The notes beneath the pieces are model-generated. The model searched no databases, had not been told where the DNA came from, and was given only the letters and a program-made list of their open reading frames with translations. A program made the position numbers and the translations under genes. 64,000 bases of DNA, taken from the IMG/VR virus record IMGVR_UViG_3300017969_000006, positions 1 through 64,000 of that record. One strand, written 5' to 3'. This DNA is from a virus. Of this stretch, positions 7,547 through 25,000 are shown piece by piece (position 1 is the stretch's first letter; each line of letters opens with the position of its first letter).

Positions 7547-7549
7547 GGT

Positions 7550-8119: not shown

Positions 8120-8120
8120 A

Positions 8121-8690
8121 TCAGGCCAACCAAGTCACAAGGGAATATTTCATGCCAGCATTGACTGGAGTTGCATGATGAAGAAATGGTGTACTTGAAG
8201 GGAAAATAACCACGGTTCCATTTTCTGCGGGAACGCTAAGACCAATGTGACTAAAGTCAAGGTCCCCACCATCTTCAGGAGTGCTCAAGAAAGCGACAAC
8301 GCTCAAAATACGTGGGACCGAAGGGTGAGCATCGAAATGAGGTTGATACTCTGCGCCGCTCCCATACTTATTAATACTCCAACCTTCATCACGTGTGAGT
8401 TCAAGACGAAAATGATCTCGATACTGATGAATCAAGGGATTAATATTGTTATGAACAGCCTTGAAAGCAAGCGAAACTGGATGATCGTCATAACTCTCAA
8501 AGCCAATCATGTGGTTCAGTTCACATTGTTGATTTGAGCGAAAATTAGACACAGTCCCAAATCCAGTCGATGCCTGTTTCCAGAACAGTGGAGAGTTTGG
8601 AATGTTCGCCCAATTTTCAACCTCTTCGACAAGGTCAGTTCCATCGAAGATGTTTTTATGGATGCGAATAAATTTTGACTCATCAAGCAT
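8121..8690 (-). CDS. 2OG-Fe(II) oxygenase, prolyl 4-hydroxylase-like
   Basis: HFD, RILSVVAFL, GGDLDF, FLHHA, KYSLVTW. Confidence 0.9.
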   Translation of the reverse strand: MLDESKFIRIHKNIFDGTDLVEEVENWANIPNSPLFWKQASTGFGTVSNFRSNQQCELNHMIGFESYDDHPVSLAFKAVHNNINPLIHQYRDHFRLELTRDEGWSINKYGSGAEYQPHFDAHPSVPRILSVVAFLSTPEDGGDLDFSHIGLSVPAENGTVVIFPSSTPFLHHATPVNAGMKYSLVTWLA

Positions 8691-9111
8691 GAGGCTCTAC
8701 AACTTTCACTTCAGCATCAGCAATAATCCCTGACTCATCGTGTAGTTCTATGGTTGTAATCCCACAATCGACGAGACGGAAACGGAAAATAGCCTGATGT
8801 TTCGTGCTTCGCGTAGTGTGAGCAACAGTGAAACGATTTACTGGAGTGGCAACTTCAACCCATGTCTCCCGACAGTCCATCCAATCGTCATTGTACGTTA
8901 CTAATAGAAAACGGCCGGCCTTAATTGCCGTTGAAGAAAGTTGAAATGACTGCTCAACGGGAATCTCAAGAATTTGCACCAGAGTTTCATCAAACTCCAA
9001 GTCTTCCATTGCGCCGCTGCGGCCGACAACAATGGGTAGCGACCATTCAGTGGCAAGTTTTTCAGCCTCTGCCATCACTTCACTGGATGGGCAAAAAACT
9101 ACCCTATCCAT
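8683..9111 (-). CDS. Hypothetical protein
   Basis: ORF translationally coupled on both sides. Confidence 0.6.
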   Translation of the reverse strand: MDRVVFCPSSEVMAEAEKLATEWSLPIVVGRSGAMEDLEFDETLVQILEIPVEQSFQLSSTAIKAGRFLLVTYNDDWMDCRETWVEVATPVNRFTVAHTTRSTKHQAIFRFRLVDCGITTIELHDESGIIADAEVKVVEPHA

Positions 9112-9302
9112 TACTGTTCCTCTTCTGAGACCTCTGCCTCTTGTGCGGGAAATGGAGGGACAGCAGGCGCTGTCAGTTTCTCGTTAAGGGCGTTCGCCTG
9201 CTTGAGCATTTGCCGGAGAATTGTGTTGTTTAAGGACAATTGTTTGTTTTGCTCAGAAAGATCTTCAATCACAGCCCTGAGGTCAACTTGTTCGTTACTC
9301 AT
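9111..9302 (-). CDS. Small coiled-coil hypothetical protein
   Basis: Heptad pattern IEDLSEQNKQLSLNNTILRQML; coupled to neighbour. Confidence 0.6.
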   Translation of the reverse strand: MSNEQVDLRAVIEDLSEQNKQLSLNNTILRQMLKQANALNEKLTAPAVPPFPAQEAEVSEEEQ

Positions 9303-9311
9303 GGCTGGATC

Positions 9312-10070
9312 TTACCACTCAACTTCACGGAAATACATTACGCCGCCTTCACCATGCCGGGCATAACGTTCAGTCTGCTTCTGCATCTCAGCCACACGTG
9401 TCTGATACTCCGGGAGTGGACCTTTGTGCAGGTCATGAGAGTAATTACCACAGTAGTGCCCAATAACGGTCTTGCGTCGCTCTTTACCTGAGACTGGAGA
9501 ACCACGATGGGCCAGTTGGCTATGCCAAATCAAAACATCACCCTTCTTGCCTAGAAAAGTGAAAACATCAGAGTTGCGCTTCTCTGCTTCTTCCAAAATC
9601 AACGTTTCCATCAATTCTTCGCCAATATTCGGCTGTTCGATAATTTCGCGAGTCATCAGCGGAACAAGATTGTCCCACTTGTGCGAACCCGGAATCACCT
9701 CGAAAGGACCCGACGAAGGATCGATGTCTTCTAAACAGACAAAAACACCGATGTATGTGGACGCAGCGAATGGATCCTGTAAAACCGAATCTTTATGCCA
9801 CTTGCATTCAGTCGACTTTTGCATCGTCATTTCAATGTGTAGTGCAGCAGCCATCTCAATCTGAGAGAAAGCGTCCTCAATCGATGGATGGCACAACACA
9901 TCTTTGATTTCAACATGCTTGTTGTACTGCTCGGATCGACCCCAACCCGCCAAGGAGTCACCATGCTCTGCCTGATACATGTCAAGATATGCGTCAACGA
10001 CATGCTCTGGGATCGATTTCTCCAAAATGAAGAAACCGTCACGTTCATACTTCTCAGCAACTGTTGTCAT
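9312..10070 (-). CDS. Phytanoyl-CoA dioxygenase (PhyH) family 2OG-Fe(II) oxygenase
   Basis: YERDGFFIL, WHKD, VCLEDIDPSSGPFEVIPGSHKW, KKGDVLIWHSQLAHRG. Confidence 0.9.
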   Translation of the reverse strand: MTTVAEKYERDGFFILEKSIPEHVVDAYLDMYQAEHGDSLAGWGRSEQYNKHVEIKDVLCHPSIEDAFSQIEMAAALHIEMTMQKSTECKWHKDSVLQDPFAASTYIGVFVCLEDIDPSSGPFEVIPGSHKWDNLVPLMTREIIEQPNIGEELMETLILEEAEKRNSDVFTFLGKKGDVLIWHSQLAHRGSPVSGKERRKTVIGHYCGNYSHDLHKGPLPEYQTRVAEMQKQTERYARHGEGGVMYFREVEW

Positions 10071-10072
10071 GA

Positions 10073-11044
10073 TCAGAAACCTACCATTTGTTTATATTCT
10101 TCGCGCGAAAGATATTCCGTCGGCTCCACTTCGGAACCTTGAGCGAAAGTCCAGTACCCTTCAAATTTTCTTTGACCAGCCGAAAACCCACCCTTAACGC
10201 CATGAGCCATCCGGAACAAATCTGGAATAAGGAAATCGTTCTCTTGCCATTCCCACCAGATTTGGTTTTCCTTGACTGCGCAAATTTGACTTTGAACCCA
10301 GTCGATTATTTCACGGAAAAGAACATGTTCTTTCCCTGTCGGTAATCCATTCTGGACCAACAGTAGATAGTCCTGAACCCCCCAAGCGGCCGCACATGGA
10401 CATAGTCGCAGAACTGGGAAGCCGAAATCTGGGTGATTCTCAATGGCTGGTCGAGCAAACGAAGAGACGTAACGGTCTCCGTCCAGAGTCCAGATCTTAC
10501 GCACACCTTGATTAACTTTTCTCATGAATCGCGTTTTGAAATCATCTACTGATTCCGGTTCGGTCGACCAATTTGGCATATGGATAATCGTTGCTTCCGA
10601 AAGAAGTTTTACGTAATGAGAAGGCATCTTTGAAATAAGGTTTGCCATGTCCACAAAGCCGGTCTGTCCAGTTCCAGCAGGAGCAGAGAAGGTGTCCATG
10701 TTCCATCCCGCAGCCCGCTGTGGTGACCTCAACGACGCGCCCTCGACATGCCACTCAATGATCGTGTCGTCCGGAGCGTTGCGCCCCTCGCCATTCAACT
10801 GTGTGACCATTGAGTCATACTGTTGGGTATAGTGCCAGTGAAAAACACCGTCATTCGCATACGGCGTCCACGATAAGGATGAGCCGATAGCGGTGAGGAT
10901 TTGAAGAACATCTGACTCGGAGTATTCGACACCACGAAAAGCGAGTACGCCGGTTTTTTTGAATTGATCAATAAAAGCCGAAGGGTTATTTTGTATCTCT
11001 TCTACCGATACGCCTCGGAAGACAGAGAAGTTCGACTCATGCAT
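10073..11044 (-). CDS. TauD/TfdA family dioxygenase
   Basis: GVLAFRG, WHVEG, GQTGFVDM, IENHP, WQENDFLIPDLFRMAHG, distal R. Confidence 0.82.
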   Translation of the reverse strand: MHESNFSVFRGVSVEEIQNNPSAFIDQFKKTGVLAFRGVEYSESDVLQILTAIGSSLSWTPYANDGVFHWHYTQQYDSMVTQLNGEGRNAPDDTIIEWHVEGASLRSPQRAAGWNMDTFSAPAGTGQTGFVDMANLISKMPSHYVKLLSEATIIHMPNWSTEPESVDDFKTRFMRKVNQGVRKIWTLDGDRYVSSFARPAIENHPDFGFPVLRLCPCAAAWGVQDYLLLVQNGLPTGKEHVLFREIIDWVQSQICAVKENQIWWEWQENDFLIPDLFRMAHGVKGGFSAGQRKFEGYWTFAQGSEVEPTEYLSREEYKQMVGF

Positions 11045-11693
11045 CGTAGGGCTCTGAGAGGAAATGCTCAATTGCAGCACGAATCCTCAGCAACGCCTCT
11101 TCTGGAGAATAAGCGTCCTTGCCCATTTCGAAGTTTGCAGGGAGTAGGCACCCGTTGGTGAACCGAGCGCGACGTTTGCCGTCTCTGGAAACGACGAATT
11201 TTTCAAAGTTTCCGAGAATTGGACCATCGTCTACACCAAGTCGTTTGTACAGCGGGTGCGGTGCGAAGGTTTCGTCATCGTCATCACGGCTGTAACGCGA
11301 GGCCACAAGTTCAGTGAATGGCATTCGAACTCGGTAATGGGAGTATGCAAAGCGCTCACACTCCTCAGCGGTGCTTCGAGAATCTTTGAAGTCGCCATAA
11401 CCAAACTCGCAATAGTCATTCGTAGGTACGCACACAATTTTAAATCCGAGATGCGCATAGTCGTATTGGAGAACCTGCAAAATTGGGTACTGCATAGAGT
11501 TACCACATTCACCAGTGACATTGACAATCATCGTGACCTCCCCGTGCCGGTCGGCTAGGGCCTCTACATCACCGGTGACACTTTTTACGCTGATGTCATA
11601 GATGCTTTCCCCGTCAACAGTTGGACCCAAGTCGTGATCCCGCTGAAGAGTTTCAAGCATGTCGGAGGTGATTGCTGATTCCATGATCGTCAT
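11037..11693 (-). CDS. Glutathione peroxidase family (Cys-type)
   Basis: IVNVTGECG..QY..LQ, VPTNDY, GNFEKFVVSRDG; catalytic codon is TGT. Confidence 0.85.
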   Translation of the reverse strand: MTIMESAITSDMLETLQRDHDLGPTVDGESIYDISVKSVTGDVEALADRHGEVTMIVNVTGECGNSMQYPILQVLQYDYAHLGFKIVCVPTNDYCEFGYGDFKDSRSTAEECERFAYSHYRVRMPFTELVASRYSRDDDDETFAPHPLYKRLGVDDGPILGNFEKFVVSRDGKRRARFTNGCLLPANFEMGKDAYSPEEALLRIRAAIEHFLSEPYDA

Positions 11694-11780
11694 ATCGTCG
11701 ATTTTACACTACTGTCATCAGGTGATTTCGAAACTCTGGTACACTTGAGAGCGGTAGTCCCACCACGATCGGAGTCTAAA

Positions 11781-12011
11781 ATGGTTGCACTGAATAGTGT
11801 TTCTGACGAGTATAAGGCAGCACAAAAAGCCGAAGTCATTGCTACTCTCGAATCTGCTGTTTGGGCTTCTGCCGTGGCCTGCGGTGTGGATCCTGCCGAA
11901 TTGACGGCAGACTGGCAAATTCCTGCCGAAGATACCGTGCCGCCTCCGGGCGACCTTGAAGATCGCCTGTTTAGTCTTATCACCCGTCTTGAAGGGGCAC
12001 GAGGAGTCTGA
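11781..12011 (+). CDS. Small hypothetical protein (paralog family)
   Basis: GGAG RBS; KAEVIATLESAVWASAVACGVDPAELTADW. Confidence 0.7.
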   Translation: MVALNSVSDEYKAAQKAEVIATLESAVWASAVACGVDPAELTADWQIPAEDTVPPPGDLEDRLFSLITRLEGARGV

Positions 12012-12012
12012 A

Positions 12013-12225
12013 ATGGTTTTTAGCGACGGATTTGACGCAGCAGCAAAGGCTGAAGCGAAGGCAGAAGCAATCAGGATGATTGAAGAAAAAGTGTACACGT
12101 ACGGCCTTATTTGTGGTCTAGACGTGTCCTCACTGCCAGCAGACTGGACGCCAACTGAGGGCGTAGACTACGAAGAGGCACTCAAAGTGCTTATTGATCG
12201 ACTAGCATGGGCTAACACTCTCTAG
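12013..12225 (+). CDS. Small hypothetical protein (paralog family)
   Basis: GAGGAG RBS; KAEAIRMIEEKVYTYGLICGLDVSSLPADW. Confidence 0.7.
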   Translation: MVFSDGFDAAAKAEAKAEAIRMIEEKVYTYGLICGLDVSSLPADWTPTEGVDYEEALKVLIDRLAWANTL

Positions 12226-12242
12226 TCTGACGGAGGAACGTA

Positions 12243-12449
12243 ATGAACGCGGCACAAATTGCAGCAGCAAAATCAGAAGCAATTGATTTTCTTGAGTATT
12301 CAATCTTTGTTCTCTGTTCACTGCTTGATATCGATTCTGCCGGAGTCTCGCACCCATATGTGATCCCGGTCCCTGAGGACGACCCGCAGTATGATCAACA
12401 TCTTTCGCTTCAGAGGCAAGTTTCCGCCCACGCAACTGTTACGGCATAA
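12243..12449 (+). CDS. Small hypothetical protein (paralog family)
   Basis: GGAGG RBS; KSEAIDFLEYSIFVLCSLLDID. Confidence 0.7.
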   Translation: MNAAQIAAAKSEAIDFLEYSIFVLCSLLDIDSAGVSHPYVIPVPEDDPQYDQHLSLQRQVSAHATVTA

Positions 12450-12679
12450 TGGAATTTCGGGCCGAATCCCTTCGCGGCCAAAGACCAAAAAACTGGTCGG
12501 ATCGCATTAAAGAGGCAAACCTCTCAGAGGCTGAACTGTATCCAGACAACGATTCAAGTACTCGAGATCAAGCAATTTTCTGGTCAAAAGAGTCCGGTAC
12601 CGCAATGAACACAGAAACTGGACAAGTGTTTATTTGCGGTACGGTAGCGCTCGATCCACTGGAAGTAACGGAAAACTAA
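12449..12679 (+). CDS. Small hypothetical protein
   Basis: TAATG coupling; weak similarity to 5188..5340. Confidence 0.6.
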   Translation: MEFRAESLRGQRPKNWSDRIKEANLSEAELYPDNDSSTRDQAIFWSKESGTAMNTETGQVFICGTVALDPLEVTEN

Positions 12680-12680
12680 A

Positions 12681-13016
12681 ATGCCAAAATTCACGAATGT
12701 TGATACTGCGCCGTTTTACGACAACACGGCAAACCTTGAATGGGTTGAACAGGAACTTGCAACCGTTATGTACATCGCTGGTCTAGACCCAGAACAAACG
12801 CTGAACACGGTAACGATTGATGAAATCATTGACGCTATCGAGTCAACATTTGTTATCGGAGACCTACAGATCGCAGAGCAGATCTTCGGGAAAGATCGCC
12901 AAACTAACGGTGCTCAAGCCTACATCCGGAAATGCAACAACAAACTGGCCAACGTCGCTAGACGCCACTGGCGGGAACGGCACGTAGCGAAATGGTTGAG
13001 TGAAAATGAGTATTAA
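12681..13016 (+). CDS. Hypothetical protein, paralog of 4901..5191
   Basis: LATVMYIAGLDPEQ...VTIDEI. Confidence 0.65.
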   Translation: MPKFTNVDTAPFYDNTANLEWVEQELATVMYIAGLDPEQTLNTVTIDEIIDAIESTFVIGDLQIAEQIFGKDRQTNGAQAYIRKCNNKLANVARRHWRERHVAKWLSENEY

Positions 13017-13785
13017 TCCTGCAATCTCCAGAGCGCGAGTAGCGCGTATGCTTTCGTCTGATCAGACCGGTGAACAGTTTGATCACAAGATCCAAGTGAT
13101 GTCCGACTATGGTGAAACTGGACAGAACCTGATTGAAGCAACTTCACCGGACAAGCGAAGTATCGCAACTGGTGATGATCATTACTTTTTCCGCCACACC
13201 TCATATGTCGATATGAGCCCTGAGTGGAAAGAATCTGCGTGGGCAATGGGTGCAGGGTCAACGACGTTTACGGAATTGTACCAAGACTATTGTTTCGTTA
13301 ACGGGCCGGTAAAAGAACTTACGTGCGGCCTGCCACCAATCTGGCCAATCCCGGAGAACCTTCGAACCGGCAACGTCGAGACGTACATCCTCAACGAGGT
13401 CGAAGCGAAGATTTTTGAGCAATACATTCGCAACTCACCCGATTTTGCTGACTATGCCGACTTTAAGTATGGATTAGTTACATATCAGGAGATTATGGAT
13501 GGATCCCTGAATGAGACTTTCGACGTCATTCGTCTGGGTGTGCACCAGTTCGTAACCAGCACGAATACGCTGATTGATCGCCTATTCGACTGTCTGAAAC
13601 CAAACGGGTTGTTTTTCGGTCGCGGCATGGCTCACGGAACAGGCATGTATCTTGACGACATGACTGTGCATCAATCCTTCTGGGCGGACGTCAGCCGCTA
13701 TATTGCTAATAAAGAAAATGTGATGTCTCGACACGTTCCACTGCAAAATGGATTCGTTCTAGCGCGCAAACTACCAACAACGTAA
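13006..13785 (+). CDS. Hypothetical protein, possible divergent SAM-methyltransferase fold
   Basis: ETFDVIRL...RLFDCLKPNGLFF...HVPLQNGFVLARK typical of O-methyltransferase C-termini. Confidence 0.5.
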   Translation: MSINPAISRARVARMLSSDQTGEQFDHKIQVMSDYGETGQNLIEATSPDKRSIATGDDHYFFRHTSYVDMSPEWKESAWAMGAGSTTFTELYQDYCFVNGPVKELTCGLPPIWPIPENLRTGNVETYILNEVEAKIFEQYIRNSPDFADYADFKYGLVTYQEIMDGSLNETFDVIRLGVHQFVTSTNTLIDRLFDCLKPNGLFFGRGMAHGTGMYLDDMTVHQSFWADVSRYIANKENVMSRHVPLQNGFVLARKLPTT

Positions 13786-13797
13786 GAGGTAAATAAG

Positions 13798-14814
13798 ATG
13801 GCTCGGCTCTACGGACCAGAGGATGCAGTTAAGCACGCCTACCACAAGGTGACAGAATCTGATTTCAAGATCATCTCCGACATGGAGTACACCAACCACC
13901 CGGGTGGCGTGATGCATTTCCATCAGGCTATTGATGTCAATAAAGAAGAACTGCTTCCCTATATTGACATGATGGCCTATGTCCCCTCTTGCGGTCTTGA
14001 GATTATCAAAGACGACGACGGCAACATGTTGCACGGACAAACGTTTGACGGGAAGATCATCGACATGTCAGATCTTCTGCAACTGCCAATGCGTGTCGGT
14101 GGCATGGGAATGCCCGAGCCAGTAAACCCCACCACCCCGGAAAACATCCGAGAAATTTTTGAGCACATTGAAGAAATGATGTACTTCGGGCTGGTTCGCT
14201 ACTGCGACATTTACCCGCTCGTCATCAACACCCTTTGGTGGAGAGCACGCGGGCACTGTCTGAAATACGTTCCCGGCGCAACTTTGGGTCTTCATAACGA
14301 CAACGACACGAACTCGATCACGAAGAACGGTCAGCGTTTCTACTCCGAGCGAGAAATCGCAATGTATCAAACCACCAATTGTCTCGTTTATCTAAATGAT
14401 GATTACGAGGGCGGAGAGATGCATTTCCCTTATCTCGATGTGACCATCAAACCGAAGACGGGAGACATCATCTTCTTCCCCGGAAATTATATTGGCACTC
14501 ATGGGGTGGCCCCAGTGAAGTCAGGTGAGCGCTACACCTATCTTGCACAGTACGGTCATGGTGGACTGCACAAGTATGAGGTCGTTGAAGCGAACGAGAG
14601 CACCAACTGGCTTGCCCCAGTGTTCATGCCATTCCTTTATCAGGACGCGACACGATTCCAGATGTCCGAATTCTCAGATTTTGACAACAGCAAAGACATC
14701 GCGCTGGGGTTCCACTCTTCGACAATCTTCACTCAGGACAGATCAACCGAGGGGCCCCCAGTCGGAGAATACATTGAATACGGCGAGGAGTGGCGCGAAG
14801 CGATGCGTCACTGA
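13798..14814 (+). CDS. 2OG-Fe(II) oxygenase, prolyl 4-hydroxylase-like
   Basis: HND, YLNDDYEGGEMHF, KPKTGDIIFFP, THGV, ERYT. Confidence 0.9.
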   Translation: MARLYGPEDAVKHAYHKVTESDFKIISDMEYTNHPGGVMHFHQAIDVNKEELLPYIDMMAYVPSCGLEIIKDDDGNMLHGQTFDGKIIDMSDLLQLPMRVGGMGMPEPVNPTTPENIREIFEHIEEMMYFGLVRYCDIYPLVINTLWWRARGHCLKYVPGATLGLHNDNDTNSITKNGQRFYSEREIAMYQTTNCLVYLNDDYEGGEMHFPYLDVTIKPKTGDIIFFPGNYIGTHGVAPVKSGERYTYLAQYGHGGLHKYEVVEANESTNWLAPVFMPFLYQDATRFQMSEFSDFDNSKDIALGFHSSTIFTQDRSTEGPPVGEYIEYGEEWREAMRH

Positions 14815-15461
14815 AAAGGATCAGCGCCCGGCTGATTGCCTTGACCAAAAAACTCAAGATATGACACCCTGTGGCCAGATGTAATGTCAGTCACTGCGTG
14901 AGTTCCTAGATAGCCGGCTGAATAAATAAATGCTGATCCGGTTTTTGGCTTAAAGTCGAGATTCGGGTATTTGAATTGTAGGTTTCCACCTTCGCACGTG
15001 TCGCGAAGAATGAGAGATCCTGTCAAAACGGTCATGAGAGACGTTTCGCTCGCTTCACCATCACCTATGAGATTGTCATGGTGAAAACCCATTCCAGCGG
15101 TAACACCATAGGTCGCAACATGCGGTTGAGTTCTCCACCAAATACAAGGCCCCACTTCGGGGAAATGACTGATGTATCGGCGAACGCATTCACCCATTCC
15201 CTCATACATCGTATGAAAAAACTTTAAATCTTCGTCGTTTACTTCATGATCTAGACGAAGAAGTCTTCCCGGTGACATCTCGACTTCTTCAGCGGTGAAT
15301 CTGTATCCACCTCTGTTTAGGTACGTCCCATCGTCTTGAAGAATATAGTCGTCAGGCTGTTGCGCTTTGCGTCGTTCAATCCATCCACTAAGAAAGTCTT
15401 GATCGACTTCGATTACGTCATTAAACTCCATGACTCCGAAGCCATGAACGATCTCTTTCAC
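14808..15461 (-). CDS. 2OG-Fe(II) oxygenase
   Basis: HHD, EGGNLQF, KPKTG, THAV, RVSYL. Confidence 0.88.
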   Translation of the reverse strand: MKEIVHGFGVMEFNDVIEVDQDFLSGWIERRKAQQPDDYILQDDGTYLNRGGYRFTAEEVEMSPGRLLRLDHEVNDEDLKFFHTMYEGMGECVRRYISHFPEVGPCIWWRTQPHVATYGVTAGMGFHHDNLIGDGEASETSLMTVLTGSLILRDTCEGGNLQFKYPNLDFKPKTGSAFIYSAGYLGTHAVTDITSGHRVSYLEFFGQGNQPGADPFQ

Positions 15462-16030
15462 TCCGGATGACCAGCCGCTAAGTTCTCGGCGCGTTCACGC
15501 TCGTTGCGTAAACGTTTGAATGTTTTTGCTGACATGTCGTCACGGACATCCGTTAAAATTTTGTCCCAGTAGGCTGAAGTGAACAATTCACTTACCTCAC
15601 TGGCATGTTCTCCCGAAAGGTACATCGTATGTTCATCCGTGTAGCCATCTCGTCCGGGATGAGGCCAACCGTACAATCCCATTTCGACGTACTTGATTCC
15701 GGCGTCCGAAAGAATTGATGCAACTTCATGCTCGGATTCTTCGCCCCAAAGGCCATTTGCGTCACAGTAAATCCCGGAATAATTCAGGCTGGCGAACTTG
15801 CGAGCGATATCAAGACACGCTCCACCGTTGACGATGCAAATAACCACGTCTGCTTCGGCAGCAACTTTATCGAGTGTCTCAAGGTCTTCGATTGAATACT
15901 CTTCTGCTCGCGCCTTTGTTTCATCGCTGCGCTCTTCCGATGCCCATACGAGACGATGTCCGCTGTCAATCAGGGAATGTGCCAGAGTTCCTCCCATTTT
16001 TCCGGGATGAAGAATCGCAATGGTACTCAT
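15458..16030 (-). CDS. NAD(P)-binding Rossmann protein (6PGD/HIBADH N-terminal-like)
   Basis: IAILHPGKMG, LVWASEERS..T..RA, ADVVICIV, YCDAN, YLSG. Confidence 0.75.
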   Translation of the reverse strand: MSTIAILHPGKMGGTLAHSLIDSGHRLVWASEERSDETKARAEEYSIEDLETLDKVAAEADVVICIVNGGACLDIARKFASLNYSGIYCDANGLWGEESEHEVASILSDAGIKYVEMGLYGWPHPGRDGYTDEHTMYLSGEHASEVSELFTSAYWDKILTDVRDDMSAKTFKRLRNERERAENLAAGHPE

Positions 16031-16031
16031 G

Positions 16032-16847
16032 TCAGTTGAATCCAATCGGTGGGAGGATGGAATATCCTTCGGTCATGTAAACGTTAGATGCTGTGGCAGC
16101 AACGTCAGGTTCCGTAACCGGGTCTGCTACTGCTTCAAGATAATTCGCATTTGGAGAACCTTGACAATACCAGCCAAGGTATGAATATCTCCACCCCCCT
16201 GTCACCGTCTTGACTTCATGTGCCGCAAGATAATTTGCTGGGAAGAAAATCATATCTCCACGCTTCGGTTTGATGCTGATGTCGTAGTAAGAGAAACTAT
16301 GCTCGCCACCAGTGAAATTTGTTCCGTCGAGTTCTTCCTCAGTTTCAACATGATCGTTGATGTAGGCAACGACGGATACAGATGAGCGTGTGGCAAGTTG
16401 GTCGCGCGGATGAGGTTTTCCGTACTCGTAATCAGTACTCACATCTGAGTGAGGACCAAGAAATGCACCTTTAGGGTAGGCGACGATATGCCCGCGAATT
16501 TTCCACCAGATGGTTTTCCCGGCCATCGGGAATCGCTCAAGGTAATCCAGTAAGCAAGCATCGCGACGTGCCTCGATGTAATCAAGGGTTTCGATTACTT
16601 TCGGATCTGGATTCTGGTGGACCAAACTTCCTCTCCATGGCATTTCGTCGAGGGTGCCTTTTTCAAAAAAGAACTTGCTTCGATTGATGTAACCCTCTTT
16701 GCCAGTGATCGGATCAACACCTTCGGTGTATGACTCTGCACGTTCACGTTCGAGGGTCGTTTTGCAGAATTCGCGCATCCAATCCCAATCAAGGTCGAAT
16801 ACGTTTTTGTAGTGCACGATGCCGCCACCCAAATGTTCGCCATGCAT
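16032..16847 (-). CDS. 2OG-Fe(II) oxygenase
   Basis: HSD, AYIND, FTGGE, KPKRGDMIFFP, AHEV, RYSYL. Confidence 0.9.
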   Translation of the reverse strand: MHGEHLGGGIVHYKNVFDLDWDWMREFCKTTLERERAESYTEGVDPITGKEGYINRSKFFFEKGTLDEMPWRGSLVHQNPDPKVIETLDYIEARRDACLLDYLERFPMAGKTIWWKIRGHIVAYPKGAFLGPHSDVSTDYEYGKPHPRDQLATRSSVSVVAYINDHVETEEELDGTNFTGGEHSFSYYDISIKPKRGDMIFFPANYLAAHEVKTVTGGWRYSYLGWYCQGSPNANYLEAVADPVTEPDVAATASNVYMTEGYSILPPIGFN

Positions 16848-16849
16848 GT

Positions 16850-17521
16850 TTATGCCTCCTCAGGAAAAATACTACTCAAATATCTCATCGAGCCACGTAT
16901 GGTATTTGCAAAAGTTTCGTCATGAGCGGCAATTCTTAATGTTCTCACCCGTGCCCAAAATTTTGACATACGTAAACGCGGAGCACCACCAGTAACCGGC
17001 AGAACTTCGTGCTGGTACTGGTGCCCGCATGGAAATACGACAAGCATTCCGGCCGTCGGTTTAACTGTCACGTTTATCTTGTTGAATGATATTTGACCAC
17101 CATGGTAATTATCGTTGAAATACAAGAGAGTGACGAATTCATTGAATGCTCTGGGTAGTCGCGTTCCATTGGGTCCAAAGTCAAGATCACCTCGTCCTGT
17201 GAGATGATCCCAGTGTCTGCCCATCACAAAGTTGTCAGCGCAACGCTCAAGAAATAGCCCGTGATCAGTTGCTACATCTTCACCACAAGTTTTCGCAAGA
17301 AGGTCACGCATACGATCAACGAGCAAAGTCTCATTATTGAGAACGTTATTGTCGATTGCGACGATTGTAGGATCGGTAATGTCAATTGCCTCAACATCAT
17401 TCTGGAGTTCGGCCCGATCCCAAAAATGATCTTCACGCATCAAACCATTCCAGTATGCGACTTCTTCTAGAGATAAGAAGTCTTTAACTATTCGCATGCC
17501 ATCAATAGATTGAATATCCAT
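16850..17521 (-). CDS. 2OG-Fe(II) oxygenase
   Basis: HWD, LYFNDNYHGGQISF, KPTAGMLVVFP, QHEV, R. Confidence 0.9.
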   Translation of the reverse strand: MDIQSIDGMRIVKDFLSLEEVAYWNGLMREDHFWDRAELQNDVEAIDITDPTIVAIDNNVLNNETLLVDRMRDLLAKTCGEDVATDHGLFLERCADNFVMGRHWDHLTGRGDLDFGPNGTRLPRAFNEFVTLLYFNDNYHGGQISFNKINVTVKPTAGMLVVFPCGHQYQHEVLPVTGGAPRLRMSKFWARVRTLRIAAHDETFANTIRGSMRYLSSIFPEEA

Positions 17522-17523
17522 TT

Positions 17524-19089
17524 TTAACGAGATGCCTCGTGTTCATTTAGTTCAAGCATGTAGCCGATGTAATCGTGAACGCGCTCGATAATTCGCTTGC
17601 GAGAATCATCATCCTTCATGTGATTAAAACACCCGTAAAGAGTATCTATGGCAAACTGCACCAAAAAATCTTCAGGAGGCTCTTTGCCGCCGAAGTTCTC
17701 ATACTGCATGAAAGACAAGTTGTGGTAGTTCCAAGGACGATACTTGAGAGGTTGGTGTGGGAACCAATCTGGGTAATGCCAAGAGTGTCCAGCATGTCGC
17801 ATGTCGGGGTGCCAACCCAGAAAACCCCGAATCTGATTAGGGATGCAGCGAGTCGGATCAGGGTCATCATTCATGAACAGATCCCGGTCCGGGGAAAGGA
17901 ACTGATGGAAATCTCCATTTCGTGATGAAATGAATACACACCCCGGAATTGGGGCGTGCGGAAGTTGATGATTTTTATATCGCATTAAATTCGCGAATAC
18001 TCGGTTGTCCCAATTCCAAGGAACCCTATAAAGAATAAAGTCCTCATCGTCAATGAACGAGTGAAATCGTTCTACTTGATCAGGGATTCCTCCATCGGTA
18101 TCTTCAATGACGAACATTGTGACTTTCTGGAATAGGTGCTCGAGATCGGGTAGAGCATAGATTCCTTTCGTGAAAACCAATGGGATGTGGTCCGGATTCG
18201 GACCCATGCTGGTGTCTCGTTGATGATCATCATCAATAACTATGTCACCAAAGTTCTCATTCACCGAGGAGCGAAATTCAGGGTCGTAAAAAGGTCGGTC
18301 TGCGCCTGCTTCAACTCGTTGAAATATGCGGTCTTCTCGCTCCCATCCCGGATAGAAACCATGCATTACGGCTCTGTTGTCCCAAACAACAACATCGCCG
18401 ACACTCCACTCCCACTTGTACCGGTTTGCTTTATTCTTTTGATATTGCTCAACGAAGTCTTTTAGTTCGTCAAACCACGGCTGATTGCCACCATGAAGTT
18501 GTGTCCCCGGACCAGTCCAGTACAGCATCGTTTCACCCGTATCGGGGTGTGTGCGTAAAGCAGGGTGGGGCGTGACATCTCTATCTTCCGCTCCGGTACC
18601 GGAAGAGAACATCGCGGTCTGGAGGTGCTCTTTCAAGTTCGCAGGGCATTCGTCGTACATGTTACGAAGGCTAAGCCAGAACGTGTGACCGTATTCAGGC
18701 TCAACGTTGTATGTAGTCATGTGCATTGAGATCAATGCTGGAGGTTCTTCGAAAAACGGATTATCTGCGTGCCAGTTTTGGTGCAGGAAAGTTTCGGGGT
18801 CATCCTTGTTTTCTACATCTCTGATGGTCGGATGGTTGGCGTCCTTCATGATTCCATCCGGCACAGGCGTCGCATCTGGGTCGTGGTACCCAGAGTAAAG
18901 AGCCTTAACCACCGCGACATGCTCGGCATCAGTCGGGTTCATTCCGATAAACCCAATCATTTTATTCTTTTTGAGAATCTCTTTAAAGTATTCAGGCTCT
19001 GCCAGAACCTGATCAGCGGTAATCCCTTTTATTTTAAAACCAAGATTACCTAGTGTGAGTCCGATTGCGATTCCGCCTACGCCCTTCAT
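17524..19089 (-). CDS. TauD/TfdA family dioxygenase with long C-terminal extension
   Basis: WHAD, HPALRTHPDTGE, WSVGDVVVWDNRAVMH, RIFQR. Confidence 0.88.
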   Translation of the reverse strand: MKGVGGIAIGLTLGNLGFKIKGITADQVLAEPEYFKEILKKNKMIGFIGMNPTDAEHVAVVKALYSGYHDPDATPVPDGIMKDANHPTIRDVENKDDPETFLHQNWHADNPFFEEPPALISMHMTTYNVEPEYGHTFWLSLRNMYDECPANLKEHLQTAMFSSGTGAEDRDVTPHPALRTHPDTGETMLYWTGPGTQLHGGNQPWFDELKDFVEQYQKNKANRYKWEWSVGDVVVWDNRAVMHGFYPGWEREDRIFQRVEAGADRPFYDPEFRSSVNENFGDIVIDDDHQRDTSMGPNPDHIPLVFTKGIYALPDLEHLFQKVTMFVIEDTDGGIPDQVERFHSFIDDEDFILYRVPWNWDNRVFANLMRYKNHQLPHAPIPGCVFISSRNGDFHQFLSPDRDLFMNDDPDPTRCIPNQIRGFLGWHPDMRHAGHSWHYPDWFPHQPLKYRPWNYHNLSFMQYENFGGKEPPEDFLVQFAIDTLYGCFNHMKDDDSRKRIIERVHDYIGYMLELNEHEASR

Positions 19090-19814
19090 TGATCAGGCTC
19101 CTTCAGTTTTGGGTGACCAGAAAACTCTGGCCCAATTCGTTGTCCGTCAGCATCCAGACCAGTTCGGATTCCACCCATCCAAGTCCATGGTTGCTCTCGA
19201 AGTTTTGTCATTTTCGCATCGCTATAACGTTGACGTGAATCATTTAATTCCTTTTGGTCGTCATCCCACATGTTGTTCACAGTGAAATCAACTGAAGGCA
19301 TTAAATCTTTCTTGTAAAACTGGAAGAACATAAATGGGCTGCCAGCAGGAAACGTGACCGGAGATCCGACTTTCGTAATTTTCCAGTTCATATTGAACTC
19401 ATCGGGCCACCAGTCAGATGGAATGTTTGCCGTGAGTGGAACCGCTCCATCGATAAACAAATTCGGAGATCCAGAGATCCATGTTTCAATACCCGGAGGG
19501 GTATGAAATGTCCACCCGACACAAAAAGACATTATTCCGACGATGCTGGGCATGACGATGTCTCGCTCGTAAGAGTGCCCGTCGATCTCAAATGACATGG
19601 TTTGACCGGAAAGAACTTGAGGAACACCGACTCCATCCCATTGAACAACTACATCTTGTTGCAGTACGAGTTCCCAACCATTCACGTTTGCTTCCGTGAG
19701 CGGCAAACACTTATACGCGTGCTTGTTGTAGGTGTCGTCCATCCAGTCGCGACGCGGAGTTGCTTGCCGAATGGTGGGCGGGTTCTGATGGCTTCGCGTA
19801 AGCGTCACATCCAT
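19086..19814 (-). CDS. DUF6065-like protein
   Basis: RDWMD...HAYKCLPLTEAN..GWE, ISGSPN, SDWWPDEFNMNWKIT, FPAGSPF; start reassigned to MDVTL. Confidence 0.75.
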   Translation of the reverse strand: MDVTLTRSHQNPPTIRQATPRRDWMDDTYNKHAYKCLPLTEANVNGWELVLQQDVVVQWDGVGVPQVLSGQTMSFEIDGHSYERDIVMPSIVGIMSFCVGWTFHTPPGIETWISGSPNLFIDGAVPLTANIPSDWWPDEFNMNWKITKVGSPVTFPAGSPFMFFQFYKKDLMPSVDFTVNNMWDDDQKELNDSRQRYSDAKMTKLREQPWTWMGGIRTGLDADGQRIGPEFSGHPKLKEPDQ

Positions 19815-19815
19815 T

Positions 19816-20523
19816 TCAGGAACCAAGCATTGTGACTTGCGAATTTGCGTCTGGCAGACCCAGACCCGGCATACCGGCAGACGCATACCCGCCAGACCCG
19901 CCATGTTCTTTGTGGTTTCTATCGTTGTAGTCGTACATGGTGACGGCAGAATATTTGGTGCCTGACGAAACCGGCATTGAGGCGTGCGCATAAATGAAGT
20001 CGCTTGGATGCACGATGACATCACCAAATTCTGGCTTGAACTTGATGTTCTTGTACGGCATCATGTACTCGCCACCCTCGTAATCGTCATTGATGTATCC
20101 AATTGCGGACACTGCACACGAGTATGAAAAGCCGGAATCTGGATGCACGGCAAAGTGTTGGCCCGGACCGTATTTAACGAAGTTGGTTGCTTCTTCGTAG
20201 TCAAGAGACAGATTAAACATTGACGAGTAGTGCTTAACGCATGAACGCACACCAGCAATGACTTCCTCGTAGACCTTTCCAAGATCAGCAAATTCTTCAG
20301 GAACCGGCATGTCACCCTGTCGCAACTTGAAGTCGAAACAGTCGCGATAATCCTTCATGATCTCATTGTCGCCAACCATGGCCTGCTTCCACGTGAAGTA
20401 GTCGGTTGCACTTCCTTCGAGACCACGTTCCAGTCGGCCAGTGAAATTAGAGTCGACCGGCCAGACGTCCTTATAAAGGATGATCCCGTCTGTTGGGGTT
20501 CCCAGAGTGCCTGCTACGCGCAT
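19816..20523 (-). CDS. 2OG-Fe(II) oxygenase, prolyl 4-hydroxylase-like
   Basis: HPD, GYINDDYEGGE, YAHAS, KYSAVTM. Confidence 0.9.
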   Translation of the reverse strand: MRVAGTLGTPTDGIILYKDVWPVDSNFTGRLERGLEGSATDYFTWKQAMVGDNEIMKDYRDCFDFKLRQGDMPVPEEFADLGKVYEEVIAGVRSCVKHYSSMFNLSLDYEEATNFVKYGPGQHFAVHPDSGFSYSCAVSAIGYINDDYEGGEYMMPYKNIKFKPEFGDVIVHPSDFIYAHASMPVSSGTKYSAVTMYDYNDRNHKEHGGSGGYASAGMPGLGLPDANSQVTMLGS

Positions 20524-21158
20524 TATTTCCTCAATTCAGTAATCGTGTAAAAAGATGGAGTGGTCCAGCGTTCGCCGGAGATTATTTGCTTCACGCCATG
20601 AAGGTAGTGTACGTCGCCGGGGTGAGCAACTGCAAGGCCCGGTTTGATCTCAAGTTCGATATCAAATTCTGGATAATAGAACTGGCCGCCCTCAAATTCG
20701 TCATTCCAATAAATAATCGAATTAATATCGTATGTTGGGAACGGGTTGGGTTTCCCATCATTGAGTTGCTTGTCGGCGTGTGGCTGCTGCTCGTTTCCGG
20801 GCAACCAGCGGATCAGGACGGGTGGCCGGCAGTAAACAGATACGTTGAACTTATCTTCAATTACTGACTGCATTTTGAAAATATACTTATTGATCAAGTC
20901 AAACATGTCTGGCGCTGTGCGTTGCAGAATTTGACCGCTGCACATCCTATCCCACCAGTATGAAGCATCGTAGATGCAGGTGCCGTCCTCGTCGAATTCG
21001 TCACCTTTCGGATTTTCCCATTCCTGAATTGTCGGAAAAAAGTCCTGAAGTCTACGAAGATCTTCGGGTTCAACGAAATCTTCAATAATTACAATGTTCT
21101 CTACACCTGTGCCGAAGTGTCCGGGGTCAATAAGAGAACGCTCCTCAGCGGTATCCAT
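20523..21158 (-). CDS. 2OG-Fe(II) oxygenase, prolyl 4-hydroxylase-like
   Basis: HAD, YWNDEFEGGQFY, YLHGV, ERWT. Confidence 0.9.
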   Translation of the reverse strand: MDTAEERSLIDPGHFGTGVENIVIIEDFVEPEDLRRLQDFFPTIQEWENPKGDEFDEDGTCIYDASYWWDRMCSGQILQRTAPDMFDLINKYIFKMQSVIEDKFNVSVYCRPPVLIRWLPGNEQQPHADKQLNDGKPNPFPTYDINSIIYWNDEFEGGQFYYPEFDIELEIKPGLAVAHPGDVHYLHGVKQIISGERWTTPSFYTITELRK

Positions 21159-21190: not shown

Positions 21191-21460
21191 CTACTTATTC
21201 ATATATCTACGCACGCGATGTTCGCCGATGAGATGGAATGTGGCGATCATCCATGCGATATGAACAAAAACAGAACGTGTCGGGTGGACCGCATTCCGCC
21301 AGTAACTACGTGTCAGGGTTTCGATCTTTTGCGTTCGTATCGCGTACAGATCGAAAAGACATATGTACAAGGCGAGAAAGGCCCACCCGAGCGCTCCTGA
21401 CTTCCTGCCGTTCCGTTCAAGGCTGATAGGGCCCCAAAAACGCTTGACTAGAGAAGCCAC
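21191..21460 (-). CDS. Small putative membrane protein
   Basis: Hydrophobic helix GWAFLALYICLFD, then ETLTRSYWR...AWMIATFHL. Confidence 0.6.
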   Translation of the reverse strand: MASLVKRFWGPISLERNGRKSGALGWAFLALYICLFDLYAIRTQKIETLTRSYWRNAVHPTRSVFVHIAWMIATFHLIGEHRVRRYMNK

Positions 21461-21475
21461 CTTCCGCCACGCTCC

Positions 21476-22018
21476 TTACTTGAAGCGTGGCGGGAAGAAT
21501 GGCGGGAAGTGCGGCGGGAAGTGCGGTGGGAACCACGGAGGGAACCACGGCGGGAAGAACGGTGGGAAGTGAGGCGGGAAGTGTGGCGGGAAGAATGGCG
21601 GGAAATGCGGCGGGAAATGCGGCGGGAAGAACGGCGGGAAATGCGGCGGAAAGTGTGGCGGGAAGAACGGCGGGAAGTGGGGCGGGAAGTGTGGCGGGAA
21701 GAACGGCGGGAAGTGAGGCGGAAAATGTGGGGGAAAGTGAGGGGGGAAGTGGGGCGGAAAGAAAGGTCCAATTGCTCGAACGACAATGGTTGTGCCAAGA
21801 GGAATCTCAAAACTTGACGTGGTCGTATAGGTGACACCGTCTACAACGATTTCATGGGCTTTACCAACATCGCCAGAAACCGAGGTATTTGCCGTATTGG
21901 CAGTCTCTGTAGCGGGGAACCCAAGGTTAACCAAAGACGTGACGAGGTTGCCGGCGTCGGTGCCGTCGGTGTATGTAAAAGTTCCGAAAGGAAGGCTGCC
22001 CCTATCTTGTGCCATCAA
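21476..22018 (-). CDS. Protein with C-terminal (Pro-Pro-X-Phe)23 repeat, putative virion-associated or modification substrate
   Basis: 87-aa N-terminal domain then PPHF/PPFF/PPWF/PPRF units; starts immediately after the tail fibre stop. Confidence 0.8.
   Translation of the reverse strand: MMAQDRGSLPFGTFTYTDGTDAGNLVTSLVNLGFPATETANTANTSVSGDVGKAHEIVVDGVTYTTTSSFEIPLGTTIVVRAIGPFFPPHFPPHFPPHFPPHFPPFFPPHFPPHFPPFFPPHFPPHFPPFFPPHFPPHFPPFFPPHFPPHFPPFFPPWFPPWFPPHFPPHFPPFFPPRFK
21482..21757. repeat. 12-bp tandem repeat, 23 units
   Basis: Units such as gaagtgtggcgg, gaagaacggcgg, gaaccacggcgg; variation mostly at third codon positions of the minus-strand frame. Confidence 0.95.
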
Positions 22019-22021
22019 TCA

Positions 22022-25000
22022 TCACGCCTTTGCATCGCCAGTCAGGAGCCAAGTATCGGTTCCACGCTTATGCAACGTTATCATAGACCACTGTTCACGG
22101 GTTTTAAGACCAACAGCAGCATTGATTGTTACCCCAGACCCAGCAGCCACTGTTGCAGTACCTGTTCCAGTCTGAATAATGTGTACGACAGTTCCAACAG
22201 GGAACGCTACTGAAGAGTTCGGTGGAACCGTGATCGTCGCCGCTGCCGAGACCTCCAAAGTATGACCCTCATTCACAGCGACCAACGTGTGGTTCGCCCC
22301 ATATGCGTCATAGTCGTGGAGAACACTTGTTCCAGCGGGAAGCGTGACCGTCCCAGTAAACGTGGGTGAAGCCAATGGCGCCTTCAGCGCCAGAGAGTTC
22401 GTCACGGTTGTAGAGAAGTTGGCGTCGTCGCCAAGAGCAGCAGCCAACTCGTTCAACGTGTCCAAAGTGGCAGGCGCCGCATCAACAAGGGCGGCGAGTT
22501 CCTGCTGAACGAACGCCGTCGTCGCCACCTGAGTGGTGTTCGTCGTCGTTGCCGCAGTAGGAGCCGTCGGAGTTCCAGTCAGATCAGTATTCGCCAGAAT
22601 GTCAACGTTGACCCATGCCGTGCCGTTCCATTGCAAAACTTCACCTGACGCAGCAGACGTGATTGTGACGTTTCCAACATCGTTGAGCGTGTTGATCTCA
22701 GGAATCGACGCATTCACCCATGCAGTACCGTTGTACTTCAGGAACTCACCGTCAGCCTCTGAGGTGAGCGTGACGTTGGTGATATTTCCAAGCGTGTGTG
22801 CCGTGTTGGCGTAGTTCGTTCCGTCATACAGAAGGATGTCACCGGTGGTCTCGCTAGATGTAGACACACCACCGGCGTTCTGAATCGTCAACGGATACGG
22901 AACCCAGTTGCTTCCATCAAAGTACGCAATATCACCTGTTGAAGGTGCGAGCGAGACCATGTCGACATCCGAAAGGTCATCAAAGGCAAGGGTAGTGTTG
23001 ACCCATGCGGATCCGTTCCATTCAAGAATGTCGCCGGTTGTGGCACTGGTGATGGTTACGTCATCAATTTGATTGACGGATGCGATGGTGTCGTTAACCC
23101 AAGCGCTACCGTTCCACACCAGAAGATCATTTGTGGTGGTGCTACTTAGACTGACATCTCCGACATCACTCAGGTTGGTGAGACCATCATTGACCCACGC
23201 AGTGCCGTTCCATTTGAGTAGATCGCCAGACGATGCGGTGGTGATTGTGACATTGCCCAAACCATTGAGGTTGTGGTTCGAGATATCGGAAACGGTGCCG
23301 GTAACATTGCCAGTCACGTTGCCGGTCAAGTTGCCGGTCACATCGCCAGTCACGTCGCCAGTGACGTCGCCAGTGACATTGCCAGTCACATTGCCAGTCA
23401 AAGCGGCTGAGACACTATTGAAAGTTACATCTGATGTAGTGAGAAGATCCTGACCAACATTGGATGTTTCGATCGACGTTACGCGGCCATAAGCATCAGT
23501 AGTAATCGAAGAAACAAAGTCGGAAGTGTTGGAACCCGTAGTGCTGCCAACAGTGACGCTGCCGAGATCAAGGGTGTCTGCGTTAACAACGATTCGACCC
23601 GAGTCAGCGGTTCCAATGTTGAGAGTATTCCCAGTTTGGCTCAGTCCATCACCAGCAGTAAAGGCCTGAGTTCCAGTGAACTGAGTGAACGCAATCGAGT
23701 CAGTTCCAATTGTGTGAGGATCATTGGTGGAGGTGACGACAAAACCTTGACGTGCGTTTGTCGATCCCGAAAGGACGAAGATTGCTTCGCCGGGCTGCAC
23801 GCCACCGGGCTGGGTGCCGTCAAAATCTTCTGCACGGGTCAAAACCCACGCAGCAGAACCTAAGGCACCCTGAGCAGTCACATCGTAAACGCCATTTTCG
23901 TATGCGTTCGACTGGTTCTTGACAAGAACTCTGTCGCCAGTGGAGGCATTAGTACCGTCAATGACGAGGCGGACTTGGCTTCCCGCTGTCAGAGTGGCAC
24001 CTTCCCCAGAGGTTCCGTTGCTGTACGTCGGTGAATCCGGAAGAGTCGTAGCAGTCGCAAGTTTTGCCGCCTCATGCCAGTCGATTCCAGCAGCAAGATT
24101 GTCAACATATGACTTTGTTGCTGCGTGAGTCGCCTGCGTTGGAGCAGCCCCAAGCGTGACAGTGTTGAATGTGACGTCAGCGTTCGTTGCTACGTCCTGA
24201 CCGATGGAAACGGTTGGCGTGTCGCCTTCACCGGTTGTCGATGACAGCGAAACACCTGTTCCAGCAACAAGATTCTGGACATAATCGCCGGTTGTATCGG
24301 TTCCGAGAGCAACTGAGTTTGCCTGAATTGTGGCGGAGATGTTTACGTCCCCGGTTCCGTCAAAAGAAACAGACCCAACGACATCTCCAGACAACTCAAT
24401 CGTGCGAGCAGTTTCCAGAGCAGTCGCCGTGTCGGCGTTACCAACGAGATCTCCACGGAAGTTGGCGGCTTGCATGTCGGCAAGGTTGAACGAGGCATGA
24501 CCGGTATTTACGTCGCCGTCCACCTCGGGGGTGTAACCGTCGAAAACCTTCCAGTAGCCATCAGATGTATCACGGAAGAAACCAGTATGGGCGTAGGTGC
24601 CGTCGTTGTAGTTACCCGCGAATCCCAAGTCGATGTTGACGGGGGACGCAGTGCCGGACCACGTGTCGCCGGAAGTGTGACCGGTCGTGGCAACAAACTC
24701 GATACTGATACCGTCAGACAGGGCAGTTGGTGAGGTGCTGACGTCAACACCAGTTGCTTCGGTTGTCGAGAAGTTGTCGGTCGACCATTCGAACGTGTCA
24801 ACGCCACCGGTACCTGTTCCGACACCATCGATTCGGACGTAGTAGGTAGTGCTAGAAGTGCCCGAGAAGTGGCCAACAAGCGTTCCGTCGTTGAGGCCCG
24901 AACCAGAGAATGAGGTGGTCTGAATCGTGTTGCCGCCGTTGAGGTAGATCCACGAGTCATCGACAGCAAGGTTGTTGACCGAAACGGTTGACTGTGTTCC

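Follow-up and report, generated by a model that had tools for sequence, protein, structure and literature searches.

We report a gene for a proline- and phenylalanine-rich tandem-repeat protein, here called the PPxF protein, on a 64,000-nucleotide stretch of viral DNA (positions 1 to 64,000 of the IMG/VR record IMGVR_UViG_3300017969_000006; below, the window). The gene is real and its repeat array is maintained by selection on the protein. It lies between a tail fibre gene and a large group of oxygenase genes, the two nearest of which encode enzymes A and B, and its product belongs to an undescribed phage family with at least 124 distinct members. Tentatively, we favour the reading that the PPxF protein is a fibre-associated rod of the virion that is hydroxylated by the neighbouring enzymes. 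The polyproline-II conformation, the virion location, the trimer state and the hydroxylation of this protein, as well as the host of the phage, are what we infer only.

The open reading frame (ORF) list and the translation place the gene in a minus-strand ORF spanning 21476..22018. The likely start is the ATG at 22015, which has AAGG upstream and lies 6 nt past the TGA of the 1944-aa fibre gene. From this codon the protein reads as an 84-residue unique part followed by FF, 23 uninterrupted PPxF units and a single K before the stop codon. A first-pass annotation of the window, made from its letters alone, had given the unique N-terminus as 87 residues; such a part exists, and the higher figure arises from counting the TTG codon and FF. 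Its description of the array agreed exactly with the translation: x is H14, F6, W2 and R1 over the 23 units, in the order HHHH-F-HH-F-HH-F-HH-F-HH-F-WW-HH-F-R. The higher-order period of three units that it had seen was recovered by Tandem Repeats Finder, which reported 12-nt and 36-nt periods over positions 21489-21761.

Across the 23 units, positions 1, 2, 4, 5, 10 and 11 of the 12-nt unit are invariant. In both Pro codons and the last Phe codon all changes (20/20) fall on the third position and are synonymous (CCG/CCA/CCC/CCT, TTC/TTT), and the His codons of the array are CAC ten times and CAT four times. Because the Pro and unit-final Phe codons vary synonymously only, the array is under protein-level selection, as had been claimed. 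The heads of the orthologues of the window protein are 47-91% identical, and the reading frame and the PPxF unit are preserved in at least 124 distinct relatives, whose arrays have between 9 and 38 units. Homologues conserving a different frame, which the first-pass annotation had named as an observation that would speak against the gene, were not seen.

The family was collected by a word-seeded HMMER search, which yielded 117 proteins, and by three scans of IMG/VR, which yielded 109 loci. Every member follows one plan, in which a globular head precedes a (P)PxF array and one of a few end types. Within the family arrays x is Phe (56%), His (23%) or Tyr (17%), and it is aromatic or His in 96% of the units. 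The heads are PASTA-like (52-87 residues), consist of two FN3 domains (~200 residues) or are longer FN3 arrays, and PF03793 is annotated on some of the sister heads. Both PASTA and FN3 domains occur in adhesive proteins that are exposed. Of the 124 distinct complete proteins, 42 end in ...PPxFK and a stop codon, 24 in a Cys-rich tail and at least 11 in a Hint/intein-like domain. The Hint/intein-like ends begin with a Cys 2-4 residues past FK (L028 1868-3163, L026 16603-18078, L051-L088, others), and such a domain could release or ligate the C-terminus of the rod. Some arrays terminate proteins of 700-930 residues. In two multi-module members (L029 5289-6932 and L049 2281-3417) repeated Cys-rich globular modules are separated by PFFPPxF stretches.

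A further end type is Peptidase_S74, the self-cleaving intramolecular trimerisation chaperone of phage fibres and spikes. It was detected in L132 and L138 (E 1e-11), and a third case, P0088, comes from a precomputed Pfam entry. In L132 and L138 the first S74 profile position is the Ser immediately past ...PPAFK, and the Ser..Lys spacing fits the catalytic dyad (SDVRDK). The predicted cleavage product ends in ...PPAFK; in the window protein the S74 domain is missing, translation stops after FK, and the PPxFK end is made by the stop codon. Because S74 cleavage in L132 and L138 would leave ...PPAFK, the rod is probably part of a mature three-stranded virion fibre. This is the strongest indication we have, and it extends to the window protein by analogy.

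In tblastn searches of 50,697 cultured phage records neither the PPxF protein nor an FN3-type member nor a 9-kb piece of DNA gave a match; the low-complexity filter masks the repeat itself in these searches, and the head-based negatives cover two family members. No description of this aromatic PPxF repeat was found in the literature. A pattern scan of 185,579 species genomes returned 28 stretches. Six of these are true members, which lie on contigs of metagenome-assembled genomes with phage fibre or enzyme A-like genes adjoining and are binned to unrelated phyla; the others are simple DNA repeats with no credible ORF.

The head was modelled by AlphaFold2 (AF2) from nine orthologues at a predicted local distance difference test (pLDDT) score of 76. 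A PASTA domain has one helix packed on a small beta-sheet within about 65-70 aa, and the model agrees with this fold. In a structural comparison by VIA-align the top 21 rows were all PASTA domains (Z 5.8-8.4), the next row being at Z 2.7, with a root-mean-square deviation (rmsd) of about 2-2.5 Å over about 65 aa (1.9-2.7 Å over 57-70 aa in most rows). The domains matched belong to PknB, PrkC, StkP, PBP2x, PBP1 and PonA2. The top rows of Foldseek were PASTA domains as well, at weak E-values, and hhalign joined window-type heads to the PF03793-bearing sister heads at 96.7%, partly via shared FPP columns. Even with the E-value limit relaxed to 10, the PF03793 profile itself matched neither the window protein nor any of its 8 orthologues; the window protein matched no Pfam or PHROG family, and a search of the ESM Atlas gave no usable match. 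Based on the model, we accept the head (residues about 8-85) as a predicted PASTA fold and claim no Pfam membership for it. The earlier hint of a PASTA domain at the end of the head thus gained substance, as the model matches PASTA domains only and relatives carry PF03793. PASTA domains bind peptidoglycan fragments or beta-lactams, and a head of this type suggests that the phage may read the cell wall of not-yet-cultured Gram-positive hosts.

On its upstream side the repeat gene is paired with one kind of fibre end. A conserved C-terminal domain of about 90 residues, here termed FibC, ends the upstream fibre in 100 of 107 distinct pairs, whatever the length of the fibre (164-2215 residues) or the type of head. 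There are 119 distinct fibre ORFs that end in FibC, and the repeat gene comes next in 97 of them; in phages with two repeat genes, each follows its own fibre. FibC gave no Pfam match and no PDB sequence match. Its AF2 model (pLDDT 94.5) is all-beta and resembles the C-terminal domain of the capsid spike of Pseudomonas phage Pa223 (Z 13.9, rmsd 1.7 Å, 94 residues), a baseplate protein of Klebsiella phage KP1 (Z 9.9) and the N-terminal part/branching domain of CBA120 TSP4 (Z 8.8), the next unrelated rows being near Z 3. Among cultured Gordonia phages, 223 have a FibC-type domain, at 49-52% identity, in their minor tail proteins; the domain was also noted at L221 5062-6303. In Gordonia phage YorkOnyx, the one such locus read, the gp40 fibre ends in FibC, the next protein has no repeat and no oxygenase follows. 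FibC therefore does not need the repeat protein, and the notion of FibC as an obligatory dock for it is weakened.

On the downstream side the gene is linked to oxygenases. As the first-pass annotation had it, the repeat gene follows the fibre and lies one small gene (89 aa) before two prolyl-hydroxylase-like genes. In an alignment of 14 sequences with 36-80% identity, the HxD..H..R site of enzyme A never varies; it consists of the iron triad H127, D129 and H187 and of R197, the basic residue for 2-oxoglutarate. A profile of the enzyme matched P3H1 (4.2e-9) and the prolyl 4-hydroxylase (P4H) of B. anthracis (2.6e-5) in the PDB, in the C-terminal half only, and its orthologue in L035 scores 34.9 bits against a Pfam cut-off of 27. 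With its conserved site and these nearest solved relatives, enzyme A resembles the collagen-type prolyl hydroxylases. The 89-aa protein between the repeat gene and enzyme A is kept in close relatives at 40-52% identity; the idea that it is a chaperone of the S74 type acting in trans was dropped, the match covering 27 residues only (E 0.009).

Repeat-seeded loci with a downstream flank of 4.5 kb or more number 88, and 87 of them have an A- or B-like gene there; a lack of association with oxygenases in other genomes, another observation named beforehand as speaking against the proposal, was not seen. A search seeded with enzyme A returned at least 594 viral contigs. Linkage was scored on the best 80 of these, and the repeat gene was present in 61, the gap having a median of 738 nt and a maximum of 4.1 kb; 14 of 19 remaining loci without it end before any fibre gene. 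The layout shifts from colinear to convergent among loci and A remains adjacent to the repeat gene. In the distant FN3 lineage, B, the DUF6065 gene and A are retained after the repeat gene. In the cultured phage records the A-type enzyme gave weak partial matches in four records, none of them from Gordonia, and the repeat gene and the A-type enzyme appear to be jointly absent in Gordonia phages, to judge from the YorkOnyx locus. In the window, the genes from the fibre gene through the repeat gene to the ninth gene behind it either overlap or have no more than 32 nt between them, and no terminator-like sites were found at 19-22.1 kb. This tight string of genes suggests that the enzymes are probably produced together with the late structural genes.

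In the reading we favour, the PPxF gene product would be a structural accessory protein of the tail-fibre apparatus, in which the putative PASTA-fold head is joined to the 92-residue (PPxF)23 stretch with its conserved ...PPxFK end. This stretch would most likely form an extended rod of the polyproline-II type, ~29 nm long if fully extended. The protein would be translated in step with the preceding fibre gene, and on the virion it would form a thin stalk, probably of three strands, on the fibre or next to it. Enzyme A, enzyme B and the DUF6065 protein are the best candidates to hydroxylate the prolines of the rod, and further oxygenases of the island might act on its aromatic side chains. Such a modification would resemble that by plant and chlorovirus prolyl hydroxylases, which act on proline-rich repeats. 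The coordinates of all features are compiled in the table.

Table. Features of the window around the PPxF gene and in the oxygenase island
Feature	Position	Strand	Remarks
PPxF gene	21476..22015	minus	179 aa from ATG 22015; stop TAA 21476-21478
Head, residues 1-84, predicted PASTA fold	21764..22015	minus	AF2 + VIA-align + hhalign
FF + 23 PPxF units + terminal K	21479..21763	minus	presumed polyproline-II-type rod, conserved ...PPxFK end
Tail fibre gene, 1944 aa	22022..27856	minus	PHROG tail-fibre families to E 4.8e-31; Mtd_N
FibC, conserved fibre C-terminal domain	22025..22309	minus	~95 aa (...LKxRxQWS..TL.KR.TDTW.L.GD..A-stop)
89-aa protein, two hydrophobic segments	21191..21460	minus	weak DUF7427, E 4e-4
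Oxygenase A, prolyl-3/4-hydroxylase-like	20523..21158	minus	most conserved neighbour
Oxygenase B, 2OG-FeII_Oxy_3	19816..20523	minus	Pfam 2.3e-9; PDB LH3 (lysyl hydroxylase) 0.002, P4H 0.009
DUF6065 protein, third conserved partner	19086..19814	minus	Pfam 1.3e-41; found in FN3 lineage too
TauD-like gene (17524-19089), three more 2OG-FeII_Oxy_3 genes, NADP oxidoreductase	14808..19089	minus	overlaps or tiny gaps
2-oxoglutarate (2OG) oxygenase genes	13798-14814 (+), 8121-8690, 5371-6084		rest of island, 5371..14814
TauD	10073-11080		
PhyH	9312-10070		
GSHPx-like	11037-11693		
Trp halogenase, flavin-dependent	6062-7546	minus	Pfam 2.3e-97
Collagen-repeat protein, (Gly-Asn-Pro)n	637..2217	minus	far end of island; possible rival hydroxylase substrate

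Several points weigh against this reading. The family is known from genes alone, and the linkage is one of gene neighbourhood among related uncultured phages, in which shared ancestry inflates the counts. The enzyme A of the window itself gave no Pfam match at E 0.01 (it is below threshold). The S74 domain is carried by three members only, none of them the window protein, and the trimer is assigned by analogy. A Gly-free Pro/Phe sequence cannot form a collagen helix, and a solved multi-stranded model for it is lacking. The two ends of the gene are represented in four salt-marsh RNA libraries, by contigs at 21284-21604 and 21794-22523, and the central part of the array did not assemble; with DNA carry-over possible, these contigs are no proof of transcription. 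As a P4H target, PPxF is less classical than the collagen-like (Gly-Asn-Pro)n protein of the island. Finally, cyanophage Syn9 has a comparable oxygenase array next to its fibre genes and no PPxF gene; oxygenase arrays therefore do not need a PPxF substrate.

The last two points lead to the alternative that survives best, which we consider possible and less probable than the hydroxylated rod: the same fibre-associated rod would be unmodified, and the island would act on the (Gly-Asn-Pro)n protein, on other virion proteins or on small molecules. Just past its fibre genes Syn9 has 10 dioxygenases and 2 Trp halogenases. Collagen-repeat proteins flank the island in the FN3 lineage as well as in the window, and the collagen-like repeat of the window contains the classical P4H site, X-Pro-Gly. 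This protein of 526 aa has a collagen Pfam match, Gly-Asn-Pro runs and a His/Asn/Tyr-rich C-terminal half; its counterpart at the same place in the FN3 lineage is a collagen-repeat protein with an S74 chaperone (L035 10836-11813). Collagen-like and tail-collar proteins had also been predicted as hydroxylase substrates by Iyer et al. (PMC2938197). However, it is the repeat gene to which enzyme A lies close, at the median distance given above, and this adjacency survives rearrangements, whereas collagen-like genes were counted in only 31 of 189 loci, a number limited by flank length. Also against an unmodified rod, the cultured phage records hold neither a full-length A-type match nor matches to the two family heads searched, the repeat being masked.

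It appears improbable that the PPxF protein is a tail-fibre assembly chaperone that folds the preceding fibre and is absent from the finished virion. Its gene stands directly behind the fibre gene with a 6-nt gap, a position typical of fibre chaperone genes, and it is strictly paired with one fibre-end domain. Yet no match to a chaperone family of the Tfa or gp38 type was found in Pfam or PHROGs, and in YorkOnyx, the one locus read among the Gordonia phages that share FibC, no such protein follows it. Moreover, heads made of FN3 arrays, knobs rich in Cys and ends with a self-cleaving S74 domain characterise mature fibres rather than chaperones.

The first-pass annotation had considered two identities, a precursor of a ribosomally synthesised and post-translationally modified peptide (RiPP), with a leader and multiple cores, and an extensin-like displayed rod. 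In the former, an 84-residue leader would precede PPxF cores that the oxygenases and the halogenase modify before they are set free. This reading is very unlikely. A repetitive C-terminal part does adjoin 11 Fe/2OG oxygenases and a Trp halogenase, and Iyer et al. read such arrays as peptide-modifying (PMC2938197), but a RiPP precursor would have a short unstructured leader, and the putative leader is a predicted folded PASTA domain, or 2 to 3+ FN3 domains in relatives; the repeats double as linkers between folded Cys-rich modules and as the ends of 700-930-aa proteins, a fibre gene always accompanies the gene, and Pfam gave no protease, cyclase, RiPP recognition element (RRE) or exporter at 0.6-30 kb, where several ORFs are without a match. 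The proposal that the two Trp units are targets of the halogenase did not hold either, as Trp units do not track its presence: one Trp-bearing phage has a halogenase, another (92% complete) has none, and a Trp-free phage has one. Of the second identity, the rod fits the anatomy of the family with its folded heads, fibre pairing and S74/Hint ends; the extensin part is an analogy only, in the absence of Ser-Pro4 and Tyr motifs.

The whole island (5.3-21.2 kb) comprises 11 Fe/2OG oxygenases, a Trp halogenase, a peroxidase-like gene and a reductase. A homologue of the Trp halogenase in G001 contains one internal TAA. Among the structural genes of the window there is a gene resembling 3'-phosphoadenosine 5'-phosphosulfate (PAPS) reductases (PHROG 2302, E 1.3e-73) at 50282-51535 (-).

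The IMG/VR record has 99,771 bases, is 67% complete and encodes a myovirus sheath, baseplate, portal and terminase. No close cultured relative of the phage was found in the 50,697 cultured phage records, and near-identical DNA occurs in salt-marsh metagenomes. Outside the window, at record position 93528-93734 (+), lies a WhiB-family gene (PF02467, E 7.6e-13); WhiB is a common mark of actinobacterial phages. The terminase and FibC are nearest to those of Gordonia phages. Because of the WhiB gene, these Gordonia-phage relatives and the PASTA head, the host is probably an actinobacterium. Direct host evidence was not found, the members from the species-genome scan sitting in bins of unrelated phyla.

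A bolder proposal, which we regard as speculative and rather unlikely, is that (PPxF)n represents a new fibrous fold: a Gly-free, three-stranded polyproline-II bundle with aromatic-on-proline stacking, assembled with the help of S74 or Hint domains or driven by the fibre, tuned in its stability by hydroxylases and as such a phage analogue of collagen. The 92-residue array contains no Gly, and hence lacks the Gly at every third residue of a collagen triple helix; Ser and Tyr are absent from the units, and with them the Ser-Pro3-5 and Tyr cross-link motifs of extensins. In an ideal helix of three residues per turn, each face of the rod would read x-P-P-F; the resulting succession of aromatic pairs and Pro pairs, repeated every 12 residues, could allow adjacent strands to interlock. 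Agreement at lag 3, scored as F versus non-F, was 0.653 against 0.51 +/- 0.012 (132 arrays), and 0.85 in the array of the window. The three-unit period was rejected as proof of a polyproline-II helix, since duplication of a 36-nt block yields the same pattern and the arrays are related; the period and the helix are only compatible. In relatives mixing PFF and PPxF units the 12-residue period is not kept.

The targets of the 2OG-Fe(II) oxygenase arrays of aquatic phages have been open since the description of Syn9 (PMC2938197). The PPxF family offers a concrete, synthesisable candidate protein substrate beside the most conserved enzyme of such an array. A hydroxylated rod would be the first example of a collagen- or extensin-like modification that a tailed phage makes to its own fibre apparatus; if the rod were also three-stranded, it would constitute a new class of fibrous-protein repeat and a simple rigid spacer for protein design.

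Among known systems, the plant extensins and other hydroxyproline-rich rods have a long Pro-rich repeat, a plausible substrate of P4H that is expected to extend as a polyproline-II rod. Unlike in extensins, the window protein has an aromatic residue at every fourth position instead of Ser-Pro4 and Tyr cross-link motifs, and no glycosyltransferase was found in the island. In T-even phages (phage S16), the gene right behind that of the distal fibre encodes a small adhesin of the gp38 type, with an N-terminal attachment part and a polyglycine-II repeat. The PPxF protein shares with it the gene position and the combination of an N-terminal part with a repeat of, presumably, the polyproline-II helical class; however, the Gly-rich gp38 repeat folds into a compact, looped sandwich, while PPxF has neither Gly nor turns, and there is no sequence similarity. 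With S74-matured fibres such as the endosialidase endoNF and the T5 L-shaped fibre, L132 and L138 share an S74 domain with a Ser..Lys dyad, here directly past the rod. In endoNF and T5 the upstream part is a triple beta-helix, here it is a Pro/Phe repeat, and the window protein carries no S74 domain.

Chlorovirus PBCV-1 likewise encodes a P4H-class 2OG oxygenase together with short proline-rich tandem repeats, and its P4H hydroxylates Pro-Ala-Pro-Lys repeats in vitro (PMC3634087). PBCV-1, however, is a virus of eukaryotic algae that has one such enzyme, and its repeat is charged, non-aromatic and not linked to fibres, whereas the window derives from a tailed phage with an aromatic PPxF repeat, which is a candidate substrate, and 11 oxygenases; the nearest solved relative of enzyme A is P3H1 and not the viral P4H. 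For cyanophage Syn9, Iyer et al. (2010) described an array (gp41-gp54) of ten dioxygenases and two Trp halogenases and proposed secondary-metabolite synthesis, naming no protein substrate; the collagen-like and tail-collar substrates were predicted for bacterial operons (PMC2938197). In the Syn9 locus the array directly follows the tail-fibre genes, and as in the window, where there are 11 oxygenases and one halogenase, 2OG oxygenases of several families are accompanied by Trp halogenases, gp41 and gp42 in Syn9. Where the PPxF gene sits in the window, Syn9 has the Gly-rich gp36, gp38 and gp39 instead; three Gly-rich low-complexity proteins lie between its fibre genes and the oxygenase array (L192 8856-12328). 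Hence, the PPxF family unites the themes of the PBCV-1 repeat hydroxylase and the Syn9 array in tailed phages, with an aromatic repeat.

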